Positions 10,910 to 63,877 of a stretch of 64,000 nucleotides of DNA are shown here, piece after piece; position 1 is the stretch's first letter; each line of letters starts with the position of its first letter. Source of the DNA: Candidatus Bathyarchaeota archaeon (lineage in GTDB: Archaea > Thermoproteota > Bathyarchaeia > Bathyarchaeales > Bathycorpusculaceae); assembly GCA_963717465.1 (NCBI GenBank), contig OY970340.1, forward strand, positions 1,152,001-1,216,000, given 5' to 3'. The position numbers and the translations under genes are program-made. The notes beneath the pieces are model-generated. The model worked only from the letters and a program-made list of their open reading frames with translations, had not been told where the DNA came from and made no database searches.

Positions 10910-12400
10910 ATGAGGACTCCAGCCATTTATATGGATAAAGAAGAGGATAGGGTTAGAACCATCTTGGGCGGTACTCCTTTGAGTGCTGAAAATATACGAC
11001 TTAGTGAGGAAGCATTAGGAGCTCAATGGCATGGGACATCATGGTTCTTCTTGATGCATTTGATAGCTAAGACTTTCACAAAAGAAGATGAAATTAGGTT
11101 ATCAACCCTAAAAACCATTGTTCAAGATTACGGCATAAAAAACTGGATCAATGACTATAACCTTAAACAGCAGCTTGTTAAAATTGTGGATGTTTTTAAA
11201 CGAAGAGAATTAGGTAATGTACATTTAGATGGTGCTCTGTCGTTAAAAATTGATGGTTTAATATCGACCGATGAATTAAAAAAATATGCCGATCGACAAT
11301 ACGAGTATGCAATGGGAGAAGGACTAGTAAGGTACAGTGTGCCCAATAATACATGGTTTGACAGAAAGATGTCTGACTATGCAGAGCGCTTTTGGTGGCA
11401 CTACATGATTATGGTTTTTGACGGCCCGAAAATTTACAGCAGTTCTAGTGGAGAGAGCGCCTTAAAGGCACTTTATAACGACTTAGAAGAGAAAATGGGC
11501 GGAAAACAGTTAGCATTTCATGGTGTAGACCTGTGGCAGAAGCCGCATTTGGAACACGCACTATCATTATTGGAAGGCTGGGAAAGAGGGCTTATTACTC
11601 GTCGAGTTCTCGCCACATTTAAATTTGGGGATGTTGAATTCGTTGCCCCGCGTTTTTTTGCAGAACCAGACGCCAAACCGATTAGTGCAGCGATTTTTTC
11701 CGGTAAGGATAATGAACGGGTATTGAGATTAATTGAAAAGCTAAGGCGATTTCCCGCATATCCAGTATACAAAGGTAATATCGAAGAATATAATTTAAGC
11801 ACCGCTCTAGAAAGAGCAGGTGCAATTACAATAGTTGATGAGTCAGATACTAGTTACAGGGTCCCACACTTAGTTTATTTAGTTTCACGAGATATGGCAA
11901 ATAAAGCAAACAGGATTTTGGATTTTAAGTATGCTCCAAGAGGTCCTAATGTTGATTTTGGAGATAATTCATTAGCGGACGAAATGTTTAGAACCCTAGG
12001 TCGGGCTCGTGCATATGCTCAGAAAATTATTCCAGAAGCAAGACTGGACAAAACAGATTACACTTCTATGATTGAAAAGATACTGAGCAGCCTTGAAACA
12101 AGAAAGGAAGCGAATTTAGGAGAAATAACTTCGATTTTCACACCTTTGAGCGGTGTTATGGGGGCAATTGAAATTGACGAAAAAAGCTCACACGCGGTGG
12201 TCAAAGGAGGTTACGATTTTGTCATTAAATTCCTTAGAGATTTCTGGGAGCAAATTTTAACCGACCGTTCAGTAGCTGATGTATTCTATCCTGTAAGCAA
12301 AAGTGTTGAAAAAAGCGAATTTGAACAAACAACGAAAAGCGAAAAGAGCCAAGTTGAAATTCAGATAAAAAACAGCTTAAAATCATACTTTGCAAAGTGA
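10910..12400 (+). CDS. Uncharacterised protein (496 aa), first gene of three-gene operon
   Basis: Long ORF with no motif I recognise; TTAAATA TATA-like box near 10869; overlaps the next gene. Confidence 0.8.
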   Translation: MRTPAIYMDKEEDRVRTILGGTPLSAENIRLSEEALGAQWHGTSWFFLMHLIAKTFTKEDEIRLSTLKTIVQDYGIKNWINDYNLKQQLVKIVDVFKRRELGNVHLDGALSLKIDGLISTDELKKYADRQYEYAMGEGLVRYSVPNNTWFDRKMSDYAERFWWHYMIMVFDGPKIYSSSSGESALKALYNDLEEKMGGKQLAFHGVDLWQKPHLEHALSLLEGWERGLITRRVLATFKFGDVEFVAPRFFAEPDAKPISAAIFSGKDNERVLRLIEKLRRFPAYPVYKGNIEEYNLSTALERAGAITIVDESDTSYRVPHLVYLVSRDMANKANRILDFKYAPRGPNVDFGDNSLADEMFRTLGRARAYAQKIIPEARLDKTDYTSMIEKILSSLETRKEANLGEITSIFTPLSGVMGAIEIDEKSSHAVVKGGYDFVIKFLRDFWEQILTDRSVADVFYPVSKSVEKSEFEQTTKSEKSQVEIQIKNSLKSYFAK

Positions 12401-13415
12401 TATTATGGAAGATTTCTCAAAAGATAAAGCCAAATTCTTCAAAGATTTCGTTAGTCAGGAGATTTTAGAGAAGGAATCAATCGTAAGTCAAGAATCCCTG
12501 ATTAACATGAGTGAAGAAATCTCCCCAGAAATTATCAGGTGGGAAAATAACAAACCATCTTTACAACTTTGGCTCAAGTCACGATTGTTCGAGCCCGTCG
12601 TAGCATCAATCGGTGTCGAAAAATATATTGAAGACCTTCTCAGGTACAAGGGTGACAAACCAGAGAAAGAAGTCCAAATTAACTCTTTCCTAGCATCAAC
12701 CAATATTTCAAGTTCCTTGAATCTTTTTATCGTCGAATTATTGAGAAAACTTAATAATAAAAACAAATTATCACTCAATGAATCCCATTTTCAAGCATTG
12801 TCTGATATATATAAGCCTAGAAAAGATTTCAAGGCTACATTTAATGACACAAAATTCTTTGTAGATGAGATTGAAAATATTCGAGATATTTTGCTCAGGA
12901 CTTCTTTAGATTTGTTAACGGGATACAATTCAATGGAAGAGGGCTATTATTTAAGACCTGAACACAGGGTTGAGGATAATAAAATCCCAGACAATCTTAT
13001 AAAAATTGGTTCTATTTCCGATTTTACAATTAGGCAATTAACCACAATTTCACAAACTTATACATCTTCTTTAAAAATATGGATAATGGAAGGTTATGTC
13101 GTATGGAAATTTAGGGATCAACCGACAATATTCTTGAAATCTGGGCAAGCGTATTACTCACCGAACCGTTCAAAATACCTTAAAACAAATGACAAGGAGA
13201 TGGCAAAAAGACAGCTATTTCTTATTGAAGAAAAACTTGAAATTGCTCGAAAGTCTCCAACAGTGCCTTGCGCGATTTGTGGCGAGCGTTATACTTCAAA
13301 CATAATGTATCATTCTAGCAAAGGAATAGCCCCAATTTGCGAGAACTGCTCGAAAGATGAAAAAGTCAAAGGTCACGTGGCAACGTTAAGAAATAAAGAA
13401 GAACCTACCTCCTAA
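12390..13415 (+). CDS. Uncharacterised protein with C-terminal Zn finger
   Basis: 341-aa ORF with CAIC...CENC near the C-terminus; overlaps the upstream gene. Confidence 0.8.
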   Translation: MQSDIMEDFSKDKAKFFKDFVSQEILEKESIVSQESLINMSEEISPEIIRWENNKPSLQLWLKSRLFEPVVASIGVEKYIEDLLRYKGDKPEKEVQINSFLASTNISSSLNLFIVELLRKLNNKNKLSLNESHFQALSDIYKPRKDFKATFNDTKFFVDEIENIRDILLRTSLDLLTGYNSMEEGYYLRPEHRVEDNKIPDNLIKIGSISDFTIRQLTTISQTYTSSLKIWIMEGYVVWKFRDQPTIFLKSGQAYYSPNRSKYLKTNDKEMAKRQLFLIEEKLEIARKSPTVPCAICGERYTSNIMYHSSKGIAPICENCSKDEKVKGHVATLRNKEEPTS

Positions 13416-13426
13416 TAGGTGGTATT

Positions 13427-14809
13427 TTGACAATCAAACCCGACACTATTGACACTCTTATACAGCAAACAAGAGAGGCTCTTGAGGGTAGCAGATACGG
13501 AGATGCTTTAGCCAATGCTAGGATGGCGTGGAAGGAGGCAAAAAAACAGCTTAACAGAGTTAAAACAAAAGTTAACAGAATAGATGCCGTTACCGAAGAA
13601 AACATGGGCAAAATTGCCGAACAAAAGGAAAAACTGCAAGCATACCTCAGCACGATAGGTTCATTAATGCAAACAATCCGTAAAGAAAAGAAACATGCAG
13701 AAAAGTTCCGCCAGCTTATCGAAAAAATTCGCGAAGAAGGCATTACGGAAAAGATAGCGACCGTTCAATCTGAAATAGATAATCTGACATCAAAACCACG
13801 AACTCTAAATGGAACCGAACGCTACTTACTTTGCCTGAGAAGATGGAACTCTTTTACTCCTTTTCTTGCAAGTTATCCAGGTTCTAGCCAAGGAGGAGGA
13901 TACTTTTTAGCGTGGTGTAACAAAGGAATTGTTATTGATCCGGGCATTAATTTTATTCAAAATTTCCTATCATCTGGGTTCTCGATTTGCGATATTGATT
14001 CAGTAATTTTGACGCATTCTCACGTTGACCATACGGCAGATCTCGAAGCAATACTTACTTTAATGCATGAGTTGAATAAATATAACGAAACAAACAATAG
14101 GGAAACCCACAAAGTAGATTTTTTCCTTAATGTCGGCTCAGCGAATAAATTTATGCAGCTTTTTTCAGTATCATACGATTCCGTTGGAAATATTGTTGTC
14201 CTTAAACAAGATGATAATTATCAGGTCTCACCGGAAGTTTCTCTCGCAACATACGCTTCTTTCCACACAGATCTTTATGCAAATCGAGCGAAGTGCTTAG
14301 GGTTAATTCTTAACTGCAAAAGTGAAAAGAAGAAAATAAGCTTCGGTCTTACAAGTGATACTGGGTATTCACCGGACTTAGCAAATTACTATACTGCATT
14401 AGAGGACGGTTTGATTGTGCTTCATATCGGTTCAATTTTGGAGAAAGAGTTATCAATAGTTAAACCAAGAGAAAAATTCTACGAAGAACACCTTGGATTA
14501 CGAGGAATTTATAATTTGATTTATGACATCAAACCTAAATTAGCAATAATCTCCGAAATAGGTGAAGAACTGAAGGATACTATTCTGCCGATTGTTAAAG
14601 ACTTAGGCGACATATTTCCTAACACAAAGGTATTGCCAGCTGACATAGGATTAAGGATCGACTTATCTAGTTATGGTAGTCCGTTCAAGGTAGAATGCTT
14701 TAAATGTAAAACATACAAAAATATTTCCGAGATTATGTTTAGCCCGCCCAATGAAAGCAGTGGAAGCAGTGGGATTCAATTCACCTGCAAAACATGTGGA
14801 AAACAATAA
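13427..14809 (+). CDS. MBL-fold metallo-hydrolase with N-terminal coiled coil and C-terminal Zn ribbon
   Basis: IVIDPG, THSHVDH (HxHxDH), TSDTG and EEHLG motifs; CFKC...CKTC at the C-terminus. Confidence 0.88.
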   Translation: MTIKPDTIDTLIQQTREALEGSRYGDALANARMAWKEAKKQLNRVKTKVNRIDAVTEENMGKIAEQKEKLQAYLSTIGSLMQTIRKEKKHAEKFRQLIEKIREEGITEKIATVQSEIDNLTSKPRTLNGTERYLLCLRRWNSFTPFLASYPGSSQGGGYFLAWCNKGIVIDPGINFIQNFLSSGFSICDIDSVILTHSHVDHTADLEAILTLMHELNKYNETNNRETHKVDFFLNVGSANKFMQLFSVSYDSVGNIVVLKQDDNYQVSPEVSLATYASFHTDLYANRAKCLGLILNCKSEKKKISFGLTSDTGYSPDLANYYTALEDGLIVLHIGSILEKELSIVKPREKFYEEHLGLRGIYNLIYDIKPKLAIISEIGEELKDTILPIVKDLGDIFPNTKVLPADIGLRIDLSSYGSPFKVECFKCKTYKNISEIMFSPPNESSGSSGIQFTCKTCGKQ

Positions 14810-20595: not shown

Positions 20596-21167
20596 TTCAA
20601 AACAGTCCACTTTAAAAAACCTTGAAAAAAACAATCCTAAACCTTCAGAAAACTAATTAGTAACTAATTAGCAGCCGACAAATGACCCCTAACCGTTTCT
20701 TAACCATGCAAAAAGTTCAAACAATACTACACATAACCATAAAAAAGTTCAAAACACACAACCCCTCAAGACCAAAACTAACGCACTTTTGCAAAAACAA
20801 GCCCAAACCAACCCTTTTCAAACCAAAAAAATTCTTAAAATTGAACAAAAAAGTTCAAAATTCCACTTCCACCAAACCATGAACAACCCCCAACCACACA
20901 AACAATACTCCCAAAAACCCACAGCAGCATTCAGCCTAAACCTAAACAACGGCGCGCACGTCTTTACCGTTCTTGTATCTAGGAGTACTAGTCGGTTTAG
21001 CCGTTGCGCTGTTACGTTTTGCTTTGCCCTTAAGTTGCCATCTCACACCTTGATAAACCCAAAACAACCTCATCAGACTGCTCCAAAACCAACTTCTGAA
21101 AATTCAAAGCACCCCTAAGCTTAGCATCAATCTCAAGTTCTAGTGGACCGGTGGGGATTTGAACCCC
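20596..21167. repeat. Copy B of the ~0.6-kb direct repeat, abutting and overlapping the tRNA 3' end
   Basis: Aligns with 7148-7745. Confidence 0.95.
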
Positions 21168-21217
21168 AGACCTCTTGAGTGCAAGTCAAGCGTTCATACC
21201 AACTGAACTACCGGCCC
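21144..21217 (-). tRNA. tRNA-Ala (anticodon UGC)
   Basis: GGGCCGG...CCGGTCCA acceptor stem with the G3:U70 alanine identity pair; anticodon arm CTTGA-CT-TGC-AC-TCAAG; T-loop GTTCAAATC; no encoded CCA. Confidence 0.97.
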
Positions 21218-54291: not shown

Positions 54292-55866
54292 TTGAGAACT
54301 GGAGCAAATATAGCTAGAAGGTATACTCGCCCTATAGCAACGAGAGAAGAATTAATGACAATCCATACTGCTGCAATGTTTCTATTGGAAAAAGTTGGAG
54401 CCGGGGGTATTACTCCTAAACTTCAAAAAGTCTACAAGGATTTAGGCTGCACCATCGCTGACGAGAAGAAAGGAATCGTAAAGATACCTCAAAATCTTGC
54501 AGTTGAAGCAATAAATGCAATACCAAGTGAGCAGGTTTTGCCAGGTAGGACGCCAGAAAACGATATTCTGATGAATGCCGGAAGTGGAAGAACTTTCCGT
54601 GGAGGTTTCGGCATCATGGCTCTATATTCAAAGTTGAATACAGATAACTACCATTTTGAATTCAGAGACTGTGTTGACGCTGACAATTGGAGAGAACAGA
54701 AGATTGTTGAGTACTTCCCAGAGTACGACATGACAAGCCCAATTTTCCTGCCGATGGACTTGGCGGAAGCTGGTTTGCCCGTTGATACTCATGACCTTAA
54801 CAGCACTATTCAATGCAACACGAAGCACATTTGGCACATTGACGCGATTGACCACATCGAATGTTACACTGATTTGGCTGCTGAGGTTCTTGGAGGCATA
54901 GAAGAGCTTCAAAAGAGACCGTTCATTACTAACCATGGTGATACACCAGGTTTAGTTTATGGCCAAAAGACCAGTGACCGAATGAGTGGAACGTTGGAAG
55001 GTTGGGAAAAGGGTAGGCCTTTGCTTATAGATCATACTGATGTTTGCATACCTGGGTTCCAAGGTCCATGCACCTTAACTGGAGCTTACGCAGTGACTGT
55101 TGCCACATCCGCATCGATGGCAGTAGGTTTAGCCCTTGGAAAGAATGGAGTTGCAAAAGGACATATCCCTGTAATGACCTACGACCTAGTAATGCCTATG
55201 GATCCATACACTCAAATGCTATGCGCTTGTGCAGATTCATTCAGTAAAATGCTGGCTTTGCACGTAAACTTCTGGCACAACAACTATAATTTACCAAAAG
55301 CTACCATGTGGCCCGCATGTAACGTTGGAGGTACAGCAGCTGGTGGAGACACGCAAGCAGGCCTTCTAATTTACCATATGTTTAACGCCCACCAATCCGC
55401 TACGGATCAGTGTGGAGTTTGGTCCACAACTGTAGGTCCAAACGGAATCTGGCCCGACGGCTACGCGATAGCTGCTGAACTGCTTAAGATGCTTTCGTTC
55501 TATTTCAAAGATTTAGACTTTTCTCCCGAAGCTTATATGCAGGAAGGGTGGCTTGCTAAGGGTCCAAGAGGCGACTTCATGAAGGATAAATACACTCTAA
55601 CACATATGGTTGACACTGGCTTCTATCCTATGCGTCATGGTTATGGCTTATGGGAGTTGAGGCAATATCTGCGTTGGATCGAAGATAAACTTGGAATAAA
55701 TGACCGTGCACACGCTTTAACAAACAAGATCGTTAAGGAGTTCCCTGCCCCACTACCACCAAAAGATGTAGCTGACAGAATGCATGCAATAATCGCTAAA
55801 TACGACAAGATGTACCAGATTGGCGGCTACACAGTTGACAAAGTAGGAACTGGTGCAAGATTCTAA
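54292..55866 (+). CDS. MttB-superfamily (trimethylamine methyltransferase-like) corrinoid methyltransferase, no pyrrolysine
   Basis: EELMTIHTAAMFLLEKVG, VKIPQNL, GPCTLTGA and GPRGDFM...TL match the MttB fold pattern; no in-frame TAG; adjacent corrinoid protein. Confidence 0.85.
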   Translation: MRTGANIARRYTRPIATREELMTIHTAAMFLLEKVGAGGITPKLQKVYKDLGCTIADEKKGIVKIPQNLAVEAINAIPSEQVLPGRTPENDILMNAGSGRTFRGGFGIMALYSKLNTDNYHFEFRDCVDADNWREQKIVEYFPEYDMTSPIFLPMDLAEAGLPVDTHDLNSTIQCNTKHIWHIDAIDHIECYTDLAAEVLGGIEELQKRPFITNHGDTPGLVYGQKTSDRMSGTLEGWEKGRPLLIDHTDVCIPGFQGPCTLTGAYAVTVATSASMAVGLALGKNGVAKGHIPVMTYDLVMPMDPYTQMLCACADSFSKMLALHVNFWHNNYNLPKATMWPACNVGGTAAGGDTQAGLLIYHMFNAHQSATDQCGVWSTTVGPNGIWPDGYAIAAELLKMLSFYFKDLDFSPEAYMQEGWLAKGPRGDFMKDKYTLTHMVDTGFYPMRHGYGLWELRQYLRWIEDKLGINDRAHALTNKIVKEFPAPLPPKDVADRMHAIIAKYDKMYQIGGYTVDKVGTGARF

Positions 55867-55890: not shown

Positions 55891-56544
55891 ATGGTAACTA
55901 AGGCTGAAGTACTTGAGCACCTCGCTAAAGCAATTATTGATTATGATGAGGATAAGGCTGTTGTAGCGGCTAAAGAGGCTGTTGAGAATAAGCTGGAGAT
56001 TATGGATGCTATCGAGAAGGGCTTATCCGTGGGCATCAAAGAAGTTGGTGACCGCTTTGGCCGCTTCGAATATCCTCTACCCTACGTGATTATGGCTGCT
56101 AATGCGATGACTGCTGCAGTTAATTATCTTAAGGAAAAGTATCCCAAAGACAAGTTGCCAAAGGCAAAAGGAATAGTTGTAATTGGTACAGCGTTTGGTG
56201 ATATTCACAGTATTGGCAAGAACTTGATTGCTGATATGTTGCGTACTGATGGCTTTGACGTTTATGATTTAGGTGAAGAGATTCCGACTGAGGATTATGT
56301 GAAGAAGGCTGAGGAAGTTCATGCTGATATTGTTGCAATGGGCGCATTGATGACTAGCAGTATGTCCTATCAAAGAGCGCTGGTTGATACATTGGTTGAG
56401 CGTGGTCTTCGTAAGAAGTACAAAGTGCTTGTTGGCGGTACTCCGATGACTGATGATTTCTGCAAGCGGATTAAGGCTGATACTTGGGGTGCAGACTGCG
56501 GTGACGCAATCAAGAAAGCACGAATGCTCGTAGGCAAAACTTAA
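55891..56544 (+). CDS. Cognate corrinoid (B12-binding) protein
   Basis: Cap domain followed by GDIHSIGKN (DxHxxG), DLG and VGG motifs. Confidence 0.95.
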   Translation: MVTKAEVLEHLAKAIIDYDEDKAVVAAKEAVENKLEIMDAIEKGLSVGIKEVGDRFGRFEYPLPYVIMAANAMTAAVNYLKEKYPKDKLPKAKGIVVIGTAFGDIHSIGKNLIADMLRTDGFDVYDLGEEIPTEDYVKKAEEVHADIVAMGALMTSSMSYQRALVDTLVERGLRKKYKVLVGGTPMTDDFCKRIKADTWGADCGDAIKKARMLVGKT

Positions 56545-56626
56545 GCAAACCAACACAAACCAAAAAATCCAAAAACAAACATCTCTCCTCTTTTCTTTAA
56601 TGAAAAAAAATTAGGTGGGTAAAGTT

Positions 56627-57034
56627 ATGTCGTATGAAGAAAAGCTGTTGAATTTCGTCTATAAGCTGTACTCTATGCTCGGCGATAGCCCAGCAGTTAG
56701 TGAGCCGTTAAAAGATCAAGAAAAAGATGTAGTGGTTGAACTTCGTATCGAAGATGTTCCTGATGTTGTATGGCAGATTGGTTCAAAAAATAAAAAGTGG
56801 CTTGTAAATAAAGGTGCAACCGATACGCCAAGTGCAGTCCTGCAATATCTTAAGGTGAAATACTTAAATGATTGGTGGGCAGGCAAAATGAACTCTGAGA
56901 CATTGTTCTCATCAGGAGCTATGCAGATCGTGGAGGGCTCGTTTGATGATCTTATGTTCATGGCACCTGTGGAAGAACCGTTGAAAGTTGCTTATCAAAA
57001 GTTGAAAGGCGAGTTTCCAGGTCTACCAGAGTAG
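56627..57034 (+). CDS. SCP2 sterol/lipid-binding domain protein
   Basis: KGATDTPSAVL...WWAGKMNSETLFSSGAMQIVEG resembles the SCP2 C-terminal signature; start at ATG 56627. Confidence 0.7.
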   Translation: MSYEEKLLNFVYKLYSMLGDSPAVSEPLKDQEKDVVVELRIEDVPDVVWQIGSKNKKWLVNKGATDTPSAVLQYLKVKYLNDWWAGKMNSETLFSSGAMQIVEGSFDDLMFMAPVEEPLKVAYQKLKGEFPGLPE

Positions 57035-57134: not shown

Positions 57135-57470
57135 GTGAGACCCAGTATGATAGAAATCTCGGGAAAGAAGATGATAGAAAATAAATGGGTAGAGAAAGAG
57201 GAAAATTTTAAAGTTTTGTTTTCTCTGATGTCGTTTGGCAATAAAAGTGATAGGGCGATTTCCAAAATATTAGGTTTTAATAACTCAATATTTTCTAAGA
57301 GAAGAAAGCTGGAGAAAATGGGTTATGTAAAAGAATATACTATAATACCCGACTTCTGTAAATTAGGATTCGAATTCGTCGTATTTACGTTAGCTTCAAC
57401 TACTAATGCTGTAAAATCAACGCAAATTGCTGAATTTTGTGCATTGACAAATAAACATCCTCAATGTTGA
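57135..57470 (+). pseudogene. Truncated Lrp/AsnC-like wHTH regulator paralogue
   Basis: ENFKVLFSLM...KSDRAISK...GYVKEYTIIPDF matches the downstream regulator but stops mid-domain. Confidence 0.7.
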
Positions 57471-57724
57471 TGCAAAAATAGCCTCTATTAACGTCTAAAT
57501 TAGTGTGTGCCAAGGATGGTATAATAATACATGATGAGAACTATATCTACTTTTTAACGTGCATAGAACATGATTGATTGTATCATAATCAAATAAGCAG
57601 TTGCTGCAAAAGTCATCGATTTTTTATTTTAACTCGCAGAAATGGCAGACAAAAAAAAGACAAAAAACTTAAATATAGTAAGGGCTTAAGTATAAATACT
57701 TTACGAGTAGTCTGTTGGAATAAA

Positions 57725-58882
57725 ATGATACAATTTGACGGGAAGACGCAAGAAAACCTTAAAGTTTTGTTTGCTCTAATGGCGTTAGGTGGTAAGAGCG
57801 ATAGGGCGATTGCTAAAGCTCTTGGGGTAAGTAATACAGCATTGTCTAGAAGAAGGAGGAAGCTGGAGCAAGAGGGCTATATAAAAGAATACACGATAAT
57901 ACCTAACTTTCATAAAATGGGACTAAATGTTTTCGTATTCGCATTAGCCTCAACTACTATGTGCTTAAAGCCAGAGCAAGAAAAAGCATTTGCTGAATTG
58001 ATGCAAAAACATCCTGAAATAATCTGCATGCTAGAGGATCAAGGCTTAACAGGAACAAACTGGGCTGGCATAACAGTACACAAGAGTTACGATGGTTTTA
58101 TTGAAATGTATAAAGAATTGCAAAAAGAAGCGTCTAGTATTCCACAAGTGCCTCTCTCAGTGTATACAGCTGTTTTTAATTCTGGCAAACAACACCCAGT
58201 ACCATTTTCGTTACGAAACATGGAACCGCTATTTCCAGGTGTCAAACTACTTCCAACTATTACCCCATCTTTGAGCGAGAAGGATACCTCTGAAGAAAAG
58301 ACGCAAGATAACCTGAAAGTTTTGTTTGCTCTAATGGCTCTAGCAGGTAAAAGCGATAAAGTGATTTCCAAAACTCTGGGTATGAGTAACTCAGCATTAT
58401 CTAGAAGAAGAAACAAGCTAGAGCAAGAGGGCTATATTCAAGAATACACTATAATACCTGATTTCCACAAAATGGGACTGGAAGTTATTGCGATTACATT
58501 AACCTCAACTTCTGGTACGATAACACAAGAGCAACTTAGAAATGTTCGTGACTTGGTGAGCAAGCATCCTGAAGTATTGTGCGTCCTTGAGGATCGAGGC
58601 TTAGCAGGAACAAACTGGGCTAGTATAACAGTACACAAGAATTATGATGGTTTCATTGAATTGTATAAACAAGTGGAAGAAGAATTATTGGCTTTGCATC
58701 GGGGTCAACAAATACCTCCTTATGAAACGCATACGATGATGTTTCATACTAGCAAACTGGCTCCAAAACCCATCTCATTACGAGACATTGAATCAATATA
58801 CAATACTGTCATTACTCTTCAAACTGCCAAACAATCGCTTCGTGTTGGGACTAGGAGATTTGATAAAAATAAAAGCTGTTGA
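57725..58882 (+). CDS. Lrp/AsnC-like regulator made of two tandem HTH plus effector modules
   Basis: KTQ.NLKVLFALMAL.GKSD..I...LG.SN.ALSRRR.KLEQEGYI.EYTIIP.FHKMGL occurs twice; start at ATG 57725. Confidence 0.88.
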   Translation: MIQFDGKTQENLKVLFALMALGGKSDRAIAKALGVSNTALSRRRRKLEQEGYIKEYTIIPNFHKMGLNVFVFALASTTMCLKPEQEKAFAELMQKHPEIICMLEDQGLTGTNWAGITVHKSYDGFIEMYKELQKEASSIPQVPLSVYTAVFNSGKQHPVPFSLRNMEPLFPGVKLLPTITPSLSEKDTSEEKTQDNLKVLFALMALAGKSDKVISKTLGMSNSALSRRRNKLEQEGYIQEYTIIPDFHKMGLEVIAITLTSTSGTITQEQLRNVRDLVSKHPEVLCVLEDRGLAGTNWASITVHKNYDGFIELYKQVEEELLALHRGQQIPPYETHTMMFHTSKLAPKPISLRDIESIYNTVITLQTAKQSLRVGTRRFDKNKSC

Positions 58883-59093: not shown

Positions 59094-59124
59094 GACCTAC
59101 AATTTAACCTTAAATATCCATTAG
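59094..59124 (+). promoter_or_regulatory. Second copy of the conserved promoter/operator element
   Basis: GACCTACAATTTAACCTTAAATATCCATTAG. Confidence 0.75.
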
Positions 59125-59174
59125 ACCGCATTTTTACTCTTGTGTTAGAAACACGTAAAAAATAGGGGATAAAA

Positions 59175-61490
59175 ATGAGTGAGGTTAAAATTGAAACAGA
59201 CCCAATGAAGTACGATGGAGTGCATAGATGCATTTGCGGTTTCTGCAGTACTGGAACTTGCTTATTGCTTGAGACGGTTGAAAACGGAAAAATAACTAAG
59301 GTTGAACCTGACTGGGAAAGCCCGTTTAATCCCGGGCCCTACTGTGTAAAATGGAAGTATGCTTTGGAATACATTTATCATAAGGATAGGCCGACCTATC
59401 CGCAAAAGAGAGTTGGTAAACGCGGTGAGGGCAAGTGGCAACGGATATCATGGGAACAAGCGTTCAATGAAATACACGCCAAGATAAAGGAAATAACTGC
59501 AAAGTACGGTGCCGAATCAATGTGTGGCTTCTTTGGCACCGGCCGAGCCGCACATTTAGGTCAGGGAATGTACCGATACTTTTACTTATCAGGCAGCCCA
59601 AACATTGCTTCTGGGCAGGTCGAGCACTGAGATGGACCCACGTTCGCAGCGTTAACGACAACCTACGGCGTGGGAACTACGAATCCAATGATGATTCCAG
59701 GTAAGACGAAAGGTATCTTTAATATTGGCTCGAATCCTATTGAGTCTTGGACGTTTGCGTGGCCAATATACCTTGCGGCCTTGGAGGCCGGCGCGAAAAT
59801 GCTCTGTGTCGATCCCAGATTTACGGAGACTGTGCGAAACAGTGAATTATGGCTAGCCATCAGACCGGGAACTGACACTGCTCTAATGATGGCCCTAATC
59901 AACGTTACCATTGAGGAGGACTTGTACGACCATGATTTTGTGGAGAAATGGTGCTTCGGATTTGACAAGCTCAAAGAACGAGCTAAGCAGTATACACCTG
60001 AGAAAGCTGCAGAAATAACATGGATTCCAGCTGAGAAGATCAGAGAGGCGGCAAGGTGGATAGCGAAAAATCATCCGTGTGATTTTCCATATGGTTACGG
60101 CATCGAATCATCAGGCAGGAACTCTATGAGCAATGTCCGATCAAAATACATTATGCCTGCGATAACTGGTAACATTGACATAGAAGGCGGCGATTACCTA
60201 CATGCAAGACCGAAACAACATAATGGTCTGGAAGCCATGGTACCATCAATAAATTTGACGGATCAAAGCATATTTCAGAAAATGATTGGGGCAGAAAAAT
60301 ACAGAGCCGGAACCTTTACGTTAATGGCTTTGCTTATGGAGGCAGGAATGGATAAAGGATATTGGAAGGGCTCTCCAGTTCCTGCGTTCTCGGGACCAAA
60401 TTGGCCCGCCACTATAGATACTATACTCACGGAAAAGCCCTATCCGATTAAGGTTATGATTGCTGGTGAAACAGGTCCGATGAGGTGTTATCCGAACATC
60501 AAAAAGGTATACGAGGCTATAAAGAAGCTTGATCTCTTCGTCTACATTGAAGACGCTCAAATGACACCCGAAGCAATGCTAGCAGATTATCTATTACCAA
60601 CCACCAGTCAATTTGAGAGACCTTCTGGCTATTCGACTATTACAAGTCAAGGCGCCATGGAATTTGAGATTGCAGGTGATCGCGCATTACCCAACAAAAT
60701 ACCCGGCTTGTGGGACCTTAAAGATGACTGGAACGTGTTCCGCGAACTCGCAGTGCGCTCAGCTCCTGAGAAAATTGAAGAGGCATGGCCTTGGAGAAAT
60801 TTGGAAGAAGCGCAGGATTGGTTCTATGAAAACACAGGCTATACGCGTCAGCAAATTGTTGAAGATTGGAAAGGTGTGGCACCATGGGAGCCCAGGTTTA
60901 AGAAGTATGCGGAGCCAGACCCAGAGACAGGTCAGCCAAGAGGCTTTGGAACATTTTCAGGCAAGGTTGAACTCTACAGCCAGATACTTGAAAAACTTGA
61001 CTATAATCCGTTGCCGTACTATACTGAGTGTGCTTGGACGCCGATCAGCGCTCCTGACATTGCTAAAGACTATCCATTAATCATGACTAGCGGAGCCAGA
61101 TTCCAGGAGGCGCATCATGGCGAACTACGACATATCAGCTTGATGCGAAAGCTACGGCCTGTTCCACGTGTCAAGATGCACCCACTGACAGCGCGTAACA
61201 TGGGCATTGGAGATGGTGAATGGGTTTATATCGAGACGCCACTTGGCAGATGCAAACAGACAGTACGGTACGATTTCGGAGTAAACCCGAAGATAATTGA
61301 TCCAGAGCATGGCTGGTGGAGACCCGAACTACCCGCTGAAGGACCAACACTATACGGCTGGCAAGACTGGAACATTAACGTCACCGTGCCTGATGACCCA
61401 GAGCATCTTAGCCCAGAGCTTGGTGCATGGTGCTTCAAGGCTAATCTTGCAAAAGTATACTCAGCAAAAGTTGGACCTACGGGGCCATAA
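59175..61490 (+). CDS. Mo/W-bisPGD oxidoreductase (DMSO reductase family, acetylene-hydratase/dehydroxylase-like) with in-frame TGA at codon 152 (candidate selenocysteine)
   Basis: N-terminal CGFC...C...C [4Fe-4S] motif; VDPRFT, RPGTDTAL, ITGNID.GG, ADYLLP and SGKVE motifs. ORFs 59175-59630 and 59670-61490 are in the same frame, separated only by TGA 59628-59630. Confidence 0.9.
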
Positions 61491-61520
61491 GAAGAAAAAT
61501 CATAATCTTCTTCTTTTTTT
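61489..61520 (+). terminator. Putative terminator
   Basis: AAGAAGA...TCTTCTT inverted repeat followed by a T-tract right after the stop codon. Confidence 0.5.
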
Positions 61521-61851: not shown

Positions 61852-63877
61852 ATGAGTGTAAAATTTAAATACCTTTTCTCCCCGTTGAAAATAGGGCCAG
61901 TGATAATTCCTAACAGAATAATGTTAACTGGCCACGCAAATGCACACGTTGAAACACCGTTAGAAGGCCCAACAGCTCCTGGTGAACATTTGGCCTACTA
62001 TCAGGCTGAAAGAGCAAAAGGCGGCTGTGGACTAATATGCTATGGATACATCTCAGTATGTCCATTTGAGAATGCGGACAGCAAGTTCCATCGCGCACGT
62101 CTTGGTGGTGCGAGAATACTTGGTGCATATCCAGCTGGTCCTGATCCTAAGGTTATTCCAGCTTTTAAGAGATTAGTTGACATGTGCCACCCTTATGGCA
62201 CAAAAGTCTTCGCCCAAATAGGTGCTAGCGGAGTTTGGGAAGGCAGATGGGGACCTTCCAAAACTGTAGATCCAGAAGACCCAAGAAAATCAAACGCAGA
62301 AATGACTGAGGAGCAAATTGAAGCTGTACTTGAAGGTTATAGATTAACTGCCCAGAACGCAGTGAAAGCAGGTTTTGATGGCATTGAAATTCATGATCAC
62401 GGTGGCATGGTGCATAATTTCATGTCTCCTTTAACGAATAGGCGAAAAGACAAGTGGGGCGGGAGCTTAGATAATAGGTTAAGATTCCTTTATGAAGCAA
62501 TCAAGAGATGCAGAGAAGGCATGAACAGTGATATGGCATTAATTACTAGGCTTTGTGTTGACGAATTCATTCCCGGCGGAATAGGAGTGCAAGATGGAAT
62601 AGAAGTCTCAAAGAGACTAGAAGACAAAGTGGACGGCCTTAATCTTGACATAGGAATCGAGCCTACAAGCCTTAACGTTATAGTTGCTCCACTGTTCATG
62701 GAGCCTGGTTATCAATTATACGGAGCTGAAGCAGTAAAAGAAGTCGTGAAAAAAATACCCATAGGTTGTGTCGGTCGAATTAACGACCCAGTGTTCGCTG
62801 AAAAAATCTTAGTTGACGGCAAGGCCGACTTTATAGGTATATGCAGAGGTCAAATAGCTGATCCTGAATTCGCCAATAAAGCCAAGGCAGGAAGACTCGA
62901 TGACATAAGACCATGTATCTATGAAAATGAAGGCTGCTTTAAATCAGGTGCTGTACAATGCACTGTAAATCCCACGTGTGGTGTTGAGAAGTACTTGGGA
63001 ATCGGAACCATCACGTCTGCCGAAAAGAAAAAGAAGATACTTAGTTGCTGGAGCTGGCCCTGCAGGATTAGAATTCGCCAGAATTGCAACTATCAGAGGT
63101 CATAATGTAACCGTTTACGAAAAGTCAAACGATATAGGAGGGGCTATTAATTTAGCCATGAAACTACCGGGAAGAATGGAATATGATGGCTTCAAGAGAT
63201 GGCTTAAAATGCAGTGTGACAAGTTAGGCGTTAAAATTGTCCTCAATAAGGAGGTTACACCTGAACTTGTTAAGAGCGAAAACCCAGACGTTGTAGTGTG
63301 CGCCACTGGAGCTGACCCCATGCGAGACGGTGATAACGCGGGCGTATATTGTGCTATTGAGGGTTGGAATCAGCCGAACGTATGCGTAGGCGAAGACATT
63401 ATTGAAGGCAAAGTTGACATGAGCAAACTTGGACCACGAGTGATCATTTATGATCAAATTGGCTATGATGAAGGTTTGGGAATTGCTGAAATGCTGGCTG
63501 ATGCAGGAAAAACTGTTGATATTAGGGCTGCAGCGCATTTCGTCGGTGGTAATGATGTATTCATGACTATGCAATTTGCACAACTATACGAACGCCCTAT
63601 GTCAAAAGGAGTAAAGTTCAGTCCAATGTCGATGATGACATACATAAATGGGAACAAAGCCGGGTTCATGAACGGATTTAGCCATGAAATGTTTGAAGTA
63701 GAAGCAGATTCTTTTGTGCTCTGTGTGTCTAAATCGCCAAATGATGACCTATTCAAGAAGCTAATGGCAGCAGGATACAAACACAACGGCAACCTATACA
63801 AGATCGGCGACGCCAATAGTCCGCACAACATCTGTGACGCTGTTTACTTCGGTCACGTTTTAGGAAGAGAAATTTAA
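61852..63877 (+). CDS. Old-yellow-enzyme family NADH:flavin oxidoreductase with Fe-S and FAD/NAD domains (frameshift near 63043)
   Basis: PNRIM, AERAKGG, AGFDGIEIH, NRRKDKWGGSLDNRLRF, RGQIADP, CTVNP and GAGPAGLE motifs; one extra base in KKIL/VAGAG. Confidence 0.92.

Follow-up and report, generated by a model that had tools for sequence, protein, structure and literature searches.

A probable selenocysteine codon at the metal-ligand position of an acetylene-hydratase-like molybdenum/tungsten enzyme family in a Bathyarchaeon

A stretch of 64,000 nucleotides from the genome of a Candidatus Bathyarchaeota archaeon (hereafter the window; positions 1152001-1216000 of C1, the single contig of 3,053,889 bases that makes up the genome, G000) was analysed with regard to a gene for a molybdenum or tungsten (Mo/W) bis-pyranopterin enzyme of the acetylene-hydratase-like branch, located at 59175..61490 on the plus strand. 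The gene is a single frame with one UGA, codon 152. This UGA is very probably a genuine selenocysteine (Sec) codon at the metal-ligand position, and the enzyme would then belong to a new Sec-containing Mo/W branch. In the mechanism proposed here, the gene would yield an intact enzyme, cytoplasmic and of the Mo- or W-bis-pyranopterin type, that has a [4Fe-4S] cluster near its N-terminus, with UGA152 translated as Sec in place of the metal-ligand cysteine. Decoding would follow an archaeal-type pathway consisting of tRNA-Sec(UCA), PSTK fused to aSelB, SepSecS and SelD, and the UGA would most likely be told from a stop codon by a conserved hairpin that begins 9 nt downstream within the coding sequence (CDS).

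The gene and its in-frame TGA

Translation of the gene gives 771 codons followed by a TAA stop, and the sole interruption is the TGA at 59628..59630 (+), in the context GSPNIASGQVEH-U-DGPTFAALTTTYG. The predicted tryptic peptide over residue 152 is YFYLSGSPNIASGQVEH-U-DGPTFAALTTTYGVGTTNPMMIPGK. A previous sequence-only reading of this DNA had described one frame with a single TGA interruption, and both the frame and the position of the codon were confirmed. It had also stated that TGA is a normal stop elsewhere, and the triplets ending at 12400, 37307 and 46684 are indeed TGA on the plus strand. Genome-wide, the stops of the 1194 open reading frames (ORFs) of at least 250 aa with an ATG start are TAA in 695 cases, TGA in 289 and TAG in 210. 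Since TGA ends so many long ORFs, it is an ordinary stop in this genome and has not been reassigned. With translation table 11 the gene is consequently split into one ORF at 59175-59630 (151 aa) and another at 59670-61490 (606 aa, GTG start).

Related Logan contigs, with about 95-97% identity, were found in two peat-metagenome runs of one study, together with a small soil piece. The contigs of both peat runs cover the site, one contig bridges the TGA, and no change at 59628-59630 is present among the 40 of 104 differences listed. This is a weak confirmation of the TGA in reads, and the peat runs may include the source sample.

Domains and ligand position of the protein

The 771-residue protein presents the Pfam domains Molybdop_Fe4S4, Molybdopterin and Molydop_binding. 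Both PF00384 (106.9 bits) and PF01568 (44 bits) score above their cut-offs, which places the protein in the Mo/W bis-pyranopterin superfamily (dimethyl sulfoxide reductase/MopB). The codons of the four N-terminal [4Fe-4S] cysteines (C21, C24, C29 and C57) lie at 59235..59345 (+), within the PF04879 match (32.2 bits, residues 18-69). These cysteines are invariant across the paralogues, are conserved as Cys in 98-106 of 110 relatives, and align with the cluster cysteines of acetylene hydratase (2e7z), the third one being offset by one residue. No twin-arginine leader was found in the protein, so the enzyme is predicted to be cytoplasmic.

Acetylene hydratase 2e7z is the closest solved structure (E 3.2e-105, 356 bits, residues 19-762 on 4-725). 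The next-best PDB match is a thiosulfate reductase (2e-58), and the formate dehydrogenases (FDHs) are far below acetylene hydratase. In the full-length alignment, U152 falls on the Cys of 'ymCigNT' in 2e7z at chain index 138, which we take to be Cys141, the tungsten ligand. The sequence-only reading had placed the TGA in the metal-ligand column, and this alignment bears it out. The column that provides the protein ligand (Cys, Sec, Ser or Asp) is thus occupied by U152 here, and it is Cys in 109 of 110 database relatives and Asp in the remaining one.

Two known identities were considered and rejected. Acetylene hydratase in the strict sense shows the closest overall similarity, yet the position of its Asp13 is occupied by Ser25. 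Asp13 is the water-activating residue of acetylene hydratase. This residue, the one following the second cluster cysteine, is His in 65 of the 110 relatives, Lys in 18, Asn in 5 and Ser in 4. A Sec-containing formate or formylmethanofuran dehydrogenase does not fit either, as there is no His after the U (the UHxP motif) and the scores of TIGR01591 (253.2 bits vs a cut-off of 666.25) and TIGR01553 (112.7 vs 814.2) are far under their cut-offs; the earlier idea of a non-FDH enzyme, with U-D instead of U-H, therefore stands. Asp follows the U here, and in the paralogues the U is followed by Ala, Phe or Tyr. No NCBIfam model scored above its cut-off, the best being PhsA (265 bits vs 694) ahead of the FDH alpha-subunit model TIGR01591. 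Because the defining residue of each is missing, the enzyme, although it would work like a Sec-ligated Mo/W enzyme, lies outside both the acetylene hydratase and the FdhA/FwdB families.

Conservation of the TGA in copies and relatives

The family was found in only two of the 61 related genomes searched, and the genome under study holds 16 matching stretches. Eleven copies cover the ligand column, and all eleven have TGA there, at protein identities of 45-73% and with flanking residues that vary. As the identical alignment column holds TGA in every copy covering it, the codon is beyond chance. Eight copies are otherwise uninterrupted (contig positions 1211175, which is this gene, 478731, 2494131, 122780, 2054750, 2376589, 1132851 and 1822102, the last with 45% identity), and the gene is 72-73% identical to five paralogues over its whole length. 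The further stretches include one C-terminal fragment and a twelfth paralogue, 36% identical, with TGT at the column. This sole Cys-type paralogue is followed 2 kb downstream, past a DUF2064 gene, by the Sec-type copy that diverges most (45%); both are on one strand (G000:C1:1817834-1824366; L173:7826-10069 and 12091-14364).

Outside these copies the column is consistently cysteine. All 19 class homologues compared, which come from 14 other genomes, encode it by TGC or TGT (20 loci were fetched, and L076 from genome G086 was left out). Loci L069 and L080, which had been flagged with TGA, carry TGC at the ligand column, so their TGA lies elsewhere in the gene. Cys is also present in 14 of 14 near-full-length bacterial loci aligned (of 32 fetched, 24-41% identical). 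The Cys/TGA pairs that the sequence-only reading had proposed to look for at this column are therefore found. Moreover, six NCBI contigs outside the assembly encode orthologues. Four of these match a different copy each, with 97, 91, 91 and 90.5% identity, and the other two are 76 and 68% identical to the nearest one. According to their protein records, the only form in which they were seen, these are called as proteins of 560-607 aa that start past the TGA. A UGA that is aligned with Cys and kept among orthologues and paralogues is the pattern of a genuine selenoprotein. A metagenome scan with the paralogue alignment and two peptide patterns gave at least 80 loci, the best among the matches listed being 38% identical, and no Sec-clade DNA.

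These comparisons bear on two simpler explanations of the interrupted frame. A nonsense pseudogene or a sequencing error could be suspected in an assembly with many broken genes, where three copies of the family and the neighbouring flavoenzyme gene are split. Nevertheless, the same TGA recurs in 11 copies that differ at 27-55% of their residues, the remaining frame is intact over 771 codons and, among the differences listed for the peat contigs that cover the site, none falls on it. The paralogue comparison effectively refutes this explanation, which is hardly credible. The other one is a naturally split gene, giving a 151-residue Fe-S protein and a catalytic part restarted at GTG 59670 or ATG 59688. 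These in-frame starts do exist 13 and 19 codons downstream of the TGA, and gene callers give products of 560-607 aa starting past it. However, such a restart would lose the ligand residue and the next 13-19 codons, a stretch in which G154, P155, T156, A159, L160, Y164, G165, V166 and G167 are invariant in frame across the paralogues and which 2e7z and all Cys-type relatives have without a break. A split gene is thus very improbable.

A FastTree phylogeny of 98 sequences, which did not include characterised acetylene hydratase or dehydroxylase sequences, grouped the 13 Sec-type tips in one clade (support 0.993). Its sister is a Cys-type metagenome protein (P0012, 45% identical, support 1.0), and the clade lies inside a group of 65 tips (0.999); those of its members that are named belong to Deltaproteobacteria, Chloroflexota and Desulfobacterales. 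Since the Sec clade is monophyletic with a Cys-type sister, a single switch from Cys to Sec followed by duplication may be proposed. The family was found in no other species representative among the genus draws (36 and 39 genomes, overlapping), eight congeners positive for SepSecS and a class draw of 401 genomes. Its acquisition and expansion in this lineage is plausible, because it is absent from the other species representatives searched and is nested among relatives that are bacterial where named. The sequence-only reading had left the choice between Sec decoding in the lineage and a recently imported selenoprotein gene. The first part holds, given the machinery described below. Of the second, acquisition of the gene is plausible, but the Sec trait itself was not imported with it.

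Selenocysteine machinery of the genome

The genome encodes two tRNA-Sec genes (71.8 and 61.8 bits, cut-off 47) with 95% column identity, both with the anticodon UCA according to ARAGORN. SepSecS (489 bits) is present in one copy only and adjoins the first tRNA-Sec gene. SelD (240 bits) has an in-frame TGA of its own (HG-U-SCKL), and the SelB profile gave 273 bits. Two ORFs of 732 and 730 aa, 54% identical to each other, encode PSTK (KTI12) fused to an EF-Tu-type GTPase with the aSelB domain III, and their PSTK parts match Pfam KTI12 at 1e-34 and 6e-39. The Sec machinery that the sequence-only reading had suggested to search for is thus complete, with two tRNA-Sec, SepSecS, SelD and two PSTK-aSelB fusions. 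SelA was not found in the genome (best 20.5 bits vs 268), and the SelB winged-helix domain is absent from both fusions and from the rest of the genome; the E. coli controls were positive in both searches. The aSelB found here has the short archaeal C-terminal part only.

That same reading considered Sec use not established for Bathyarchaeia. Concerning the machinery, this is outdated, since PSTK-aSelB fusions and tRNA-Sec have been published in 'diverse Bathyarchaeota' (Mukai et al., PMC8762117), and this published machinery, which includes an unusual tRNA-Sec, is summarised in PMC9499178. In our searches, 264 relatives of the fusion were found at E<=1e-40. Where named, they are mostly Ca. Bathyarchaeota or Bathyarchaeia with 69-70% identity, with single rows from Nitrososphaerota and Nanoarchaeia, in support of the lineage assigned to this genome. 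Of the 101 genomes of the genus, only 9, this one among them, have SepSecS above cut-off.

The second PSTK-aSelB gene (G000:C1:2827366-2829555; L018:1084-3273) adjoins the second tRNA-Sec gene (L002). Its GTPase motifs are GHCKHGKT in place of GHVDHGKT and EMPGN in place of DLPGH, and because of these altered motifs the second fusion may bind or hydrolyse GTP differently. Around this locus (G000:C1:2818000-2834000, L177) there are genes for a RACo corrinoid activase, a corrinoid protein, GcvH and HdrB/HdrC-like proteins, as well as a 415-aa ORF (L177:4988-6235, minus strand) with three in-frame TGAs and no Pfam family.

With this machinery, UGA152 could in principle be read as a residue other than Sec, either as Cys through SepCysS acting on Sep-tRNA-Sec or by near-cognate decoding. 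The relatives carry Cys at the column, cross-talk between Sep-tRNA-Sec and SepCysS is discussed in PMC8762117, and the genome has two tRNA-Sec and two PSTK-aSelB, one of these with altered GTPase motifs, for one SepSecS. On the other hand, TGC or TGT would suffice for Cys, yet TGA is held in 11 copies and in the orthologues. SepSecS is present together with a SelD that itself needs UGA decoding, and the fusion has been proposed to prevent SepCysS cross-talk (Mukai et al., PMC8762117). Decoding as another residue is accordingly improbable, and Sec would be the residue inserted.

Some observations weigh against UGA152 being a Sec codon. The PSTK matches (151 and 134 bits) are under the NCBIfam cut-off of 290.5, and the genome is 88% complete by marker genes. 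Three of the eleven copies are broken by frameshifts or other stops, which could be real decay or assembly indels. Furthermore, the enzyme family is found in none of the eight other SepSecS-positive congeners at E<=1e-40.

A hairpin downstream of the UGA

A hairpin, candidate for the Sec insertion signal, is located in the gene at 59637..59674 (+). It begins 9 nt after the TGA and has two stems, an outer one, CCCACG/CGUGGG, and an inner one, with a 6-7 nt apical loop that lies 22-23 nt past the UGA. For the 11 TGA-type genes the minimum free energy (MFE) of this region ranges from -16.0 to -22.2 kcal/mol (mean -19.5, z -2.65), whereas the same region of 20 Cys-type genes gives a mean of -11.1 kcal/mol (z -0.68; Mann-Whitney p ~3e-5, an overstated value). 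RNAalifold recovered both stems. In the alignment of the 11 copies 89% of the cells are paired, vs 23-47% with slid partners. Both sides have changed in five pairs, which was matched by 3 of 500 shuffles, and the covariation score was matched by none of 500. The codons at the base of the stem (CCC ACG ... GGC GTG GGA) are nearly invariant at synonymous sites, and there is one clean compensatory pair at synonymous positions, Leu TTA>CTA with Leu TTA>TTG.

The hdrA gene of this genome also has an in-frame TGA (...TLDCSI-U-IEGP), with a hairpin 6 nt later (-25.8 kcal/mol), and it was used as an independent control. Among 401 genomes of the class, 327 had an HdrA match, and the 30 best loci were compared. 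Six of them, from six genomes and two genera, are TGA-type and 24 are Cys-type, and the peptide is almost identical. The MFE of all six TGA-type loci is between -20.7 and -26.8 kcal/mol (z -3.5 to -7.5), whereas the 24 Cys-type loci range from -6.4 to -15.4 kcal/mol (z +1.1 to -1.9). Since all the TGA-type and none of the Cys-type loci have the hairpin while sharing nearly the same peptide, it tracks the UGA rather than the protein sequence. The second UGA of hdrA-mvhD (CNW-U), compared in 18 of the 30 loci, gave -22.8 to -23.5 in 6 TGA-type vs -6.3 to -18.8 in 12 Cys-type loci, a difference in the same direction that is partly supportive.

The genome was also scanned for in-frame TGAs, which gave 1702 raw candidates, 248 of them coding-like on both sides. 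A strict hairpin filter kept 14 of the 248, namely 10 MopB copies, HdrA and three unverified candidates. In MopB and HdrA alike, the apical loop has 7 nt with G at position 3, and its start is exactly 22 nt past the UGA. A loop-plus-stem descriptor built on both families matched 13 of the 248 candidates, nine of them MopB or HdrA. It was rejected as a general Sec marker, because outside MopB and HdrA it matches only at the background rate (4 of 239 vs 1.6% in the random background).

Several features weigh against this hairpin as a Sec insertion sequence (SECIS). The copy in this gene is the weakest of the 11 (-16.0 kcal/mol, z -1.55, the other ten being at -17.7 to -22.2) and fails the strict filter by its z. 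Its apical loop, AACGAC, does not have the GG doublet of the other ten; this copy has TTT instead of GLG, and its upper stem is re-formed in another register. The synonymous identity after the U ranks 53 of 754 windows, within the top 7% only. For the second hdrA-mvhD UGA z is only -0.5 to -1.3, and the SelD hairpin is weak (-9.6 kcal/mol). The Mann-Whitney p-values and the shuffle counts are overstated because the paralogues are kin. In addition, the hairpin fits no known SECIS type and belongs to none of those described for archaea, and no hairpin-binding factor was found.

The bacterial SECIS consensus (Zhang and Gladyshev, via PMC13188914) has a loop of 3-9 nt located 16-37 nt after the UGA, an MFE of -7.5 or lower, and either a G in the first two loop positions or the pattern N1-G-[G/U]-N-N2 (PMC13188914). 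The commonest loop of the family, UAGGAUU, is present in six of the ten other copies and matches that pattern only with GGA as the loop, closed by A and U. AACGAC does not match it.

On balance, we favour by a small margin of judgement the reading of the UGA-proximal hairpin as an archaeal SECIS. Another possibility, which we regard as clearly the less likely, is that Sec is inserted while the in-gene hairpin acts as a helper like the eukaryotic Sec redefinition element, is a ribosome pause site or is a by-product, the real signal being elsewhere or absent. Such a role would agree with an aSelB that lacks SECIS-binding winged helices, with the weak SelD hairpin and the deviating loop of this copy, and with the background-rate matches of the loop descriptor among other TGA candidates. 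However, no alternative element was found in the AT-rich, unconserved 3' flanks, where T-runs occur in 7 of 8 copies and Rfam gave nothing. The HdrA hairpin follows the TGA and not the peptide, and in MopB as in HdrA the apical loop starts exactly 22 nt past the UGA.

Taking the SECIS reading further, Sec-using Bathyarchaeia could mark their Sec codons by a hairpin within the CDS, with its loop 22 nt past the UGA, a placement found in bacteria and not in other archaea, and read it with machinery of the archaeal/eukaryal type (PSTK-aSelB, SepSecS) without the bacterial SECIS-binding domain. Such a signal could have eased the conversion of Cys to Sec and the expansion to 11 copies. We lean only slightly towards this general model, in which the fused aSelB would be the factor that reads the hairpin.

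Flanking regions

Directly after the TAA stop, at 61491..61520 (+), there is an AT-rich hairpin (GAAGAA...TTCTTC) followed by a T7 run (61514-61520), a likely transcript end. Its position leaves no room for a SECIS within the 3' untranslated region (UTR), and because this UTR would be only about 25 nt long and end in a T-run, the in-gene hairpin is the most likely signal. The 3' flank of this copy has 23% GC, and its best 60-nt window folds at -7.9 kcal/mol. Among the eight intact copies, seven have a run of at least five T 5-30 nt past the stop, and the 3' flanks are AT-rich and unrelated. No shared hairpin was seen in the 3' flanks of the copies, with no dedicated eSECIS-like search made. 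The archaeal core pattern GAA+3 S-S+A, a crude descriptor used without a positive control, had no matches in seven of the eight copies and one near the eighth. Rfam gave no SECIS match, only a chance-level sR60 (14.7 bits vs 50). The only Rfam match above its gathering score in the window is a tRNA at 21144-21217 on the minus strand (70 bits).

Archaeal SECIS elements are described as being 'most often' in the 3' UTR (PMC13188914). Those of Methanococcus are located in the 3'- and 5'-UTR (PMC11881835), and in Lokiarchaeota the element is downstream of the coding sequence (PMC4989117).

Upstream of the gene (59103..59174, +), an alignment made by eye showed TTTAACCTTAAAT, which resembles a TATA box, at position 59103 and TAGGGGAT ahead of the ATG, with variants in most paralogues. 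The TTTAACCTTAAAT sequence is present nine times in the genome, at window positions 59103, 54240 and 15135 and at genome positions 130572, 481094, 179282, 203210, 680302 and 2351692. Among them are sites upstream of this gene, an MttB-like gene (54240) and further MopB copies. The motif, a TTATTTTGTGGCAAAA-like box and the ribosome-binding site TAGGAGAT in combination suggest a regulon.

Genomic neighbourhood and possible function

The genes around the enzyme gene were assigned with Pfam, and the neighbour scan covered 92 of 131 ORFs of at least 100 aa around nine other loci plus seven ORFs of the window. All the neighbours described here are on the plus strand. Upstream, an MttB-like methyltransferase of 524 aa with no in-frame TAG (54292-55866) is followed by a corrinoid protein of 217 aa (55891-56544), a 139-aa ORF with no Pfam family (56615-57034), another ORF without family (57135-57470) and a double winged-helix regulator of 434 aa (57578-58882; wings at residues 61-103 and 245-288). 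Counterparts of the 139-aa ORF, at L169:4687-5103 (139 aa) and L168:1466-1870 (135 aa), accompany other copies and always adjoin the corrinoid protein gene. The 434-aa regulator resembles a doubled form of the HTH_24 regulators of 170-200 aa that are found beside other copies.

Downstream, an OYE/TMADH-like flavin mononucleotide (FMN) flavoenzyme is encoded by two overlapping ORFs, 61852-63105 (Oxidored_FMN, 417 aa) and 62978-63877 (Pyr_redox_2, 299 aa). Beside two other copies its paralogues, of 663 and 677 aa, are each encoded by a single ORF. The split is a frameshift, due to an assembly indel or to real decay. Some of these neighbours recur around the 11 copies. Small winged-helix regulators are beside at least seven, pairs of MttB-like and corrinoid proteins beside four including this one (near-identical in L168 and twice in L169), OYE/TMADH-like FMN flavoenzymes likewise beside four including this one, and MtmB-like proteins (453 aa) beside three.

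Regarding the reaction, our tentative guess, and a rather doubtful one, is that the enzyme reduces or dehydroxylates small organic compounds from methyl-group catabolism in peat, for example catechols from demethylated methoxy-aromatics, or N-oxides. It is based on the replacement of Asp13 by Ser, the corrinoid methyltransferase and flavoenzyme neighbours, the shared promoter motif and the peat metagenomes in which related contigs were found.

Known and new aspects

Publications on the Sec machinery of Bathyarchaeota already exist. Neither this selenoprotein family nor an in-gene archaeal SECIS was found in print. The literature covered Sec in Bathyarchaeota, Sec-containing acetylene hydratases and archaeal coding-sequence SECIS elements, at the level of articles and not of their supplements. 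A 2026 review (PMC13188914) limits archaeal Sec use to Methanococcales, Methanopyrales and Asgard and counts 11 archaeal selenoprotein families. In its searchable text there is no match for 'Bathyarch' or 'acetylene', and in its Table 1 FdhA and FwdB, with the motif UHxP, are the sole Mo/W selenoenzymes.

If the Sec reading is correct, this would be the first Sec-ligated Mo/W enzyme family outside the formate and formylmethanofuran dehydrogenases. As a second, unrelated Sec-ligated branch beside them, it would provide a natural experiment on the effect of selenium at such centres. With these eleven copies, the eleven archaeal families of PMC13188914 would become twelve, and a large selenoproteome would exist in an abundant peat and sediment lineage that is unlisted there as Sec-using. 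Annotation pipelines miss the family because gene callers split every member.

How archaeal aSelB finds the SECIS is described as an open question (PMC9499178, PMC11881835). A short hairpin after the UGA and a fused PSTK-aSelB would offer a compact system to address it and, if the hairpin is a SECIS, a third mode of coupling this element to the elongation factor.

Comparison with known systems

The Sec-encoding system of Bathyarchaeota described by Mukai et al. (PMC8762117) has the same PSTK-aSelB fusion as this genome, which differs in having two diverged copies each of the fusion and of tRNA-Sec. In the searchable text of that article 'SECIS' occurs 0 times and selenoproteins once, in the reference list, and neither this enzyme family nor a recoding signal is described in it.

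With the bacterial SECIS, whose prototype is that of E. coli fdhF, the hairpin shares the stem-loop within the CDS, the loop distance, the loop size and the MFE. In contrast, it is found in an archaeon with SepSecS and PSTK, where no SelA was found and aSelB has no SECIS-binding winged helices, and the loop of this copy has no G in its first two positions.

The catechol dehydroxylases are considered the closest to acetylene hydratase, with homologues in soil bacteria 'and even Archaea' (eLife, PMC7028382). Those of Eggerthella and Gordonibacter (Dadh, Cldh) belong to the same super-clade as the present enzyme and also occur as many paralogues per genome. Uncharacterised Eggerthellaceae homologues are 30-34% identical to this protein. 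They differ from it, however, in that they have the ligand Cys, appear without the N-terminal CxxC in the alignment and lie on another branch of the tree.

FdhF/FdhA and FwdB are likewise Mo/W bis-pyranopterin enzymes with a UGA-encoded Sec ligand, but their motif is U-H-x-P, whereas the motif here is U-D-G-P-T. Finally, the acetylene hydratase of Pelobacter (Syntrophotalea) acetylenicus (2e7z) shares with this enzyme the three-domain layout, the N-terminal [4Fe-4S] cluster, the single-subunit cytoplasmic type and the ligand column. The Bathyarchaeal protein would differ from it in carrying Sec in place of the ligand Cys, and it has Ser25 in place of Asp13 and the third cluster Cys one residue further along.

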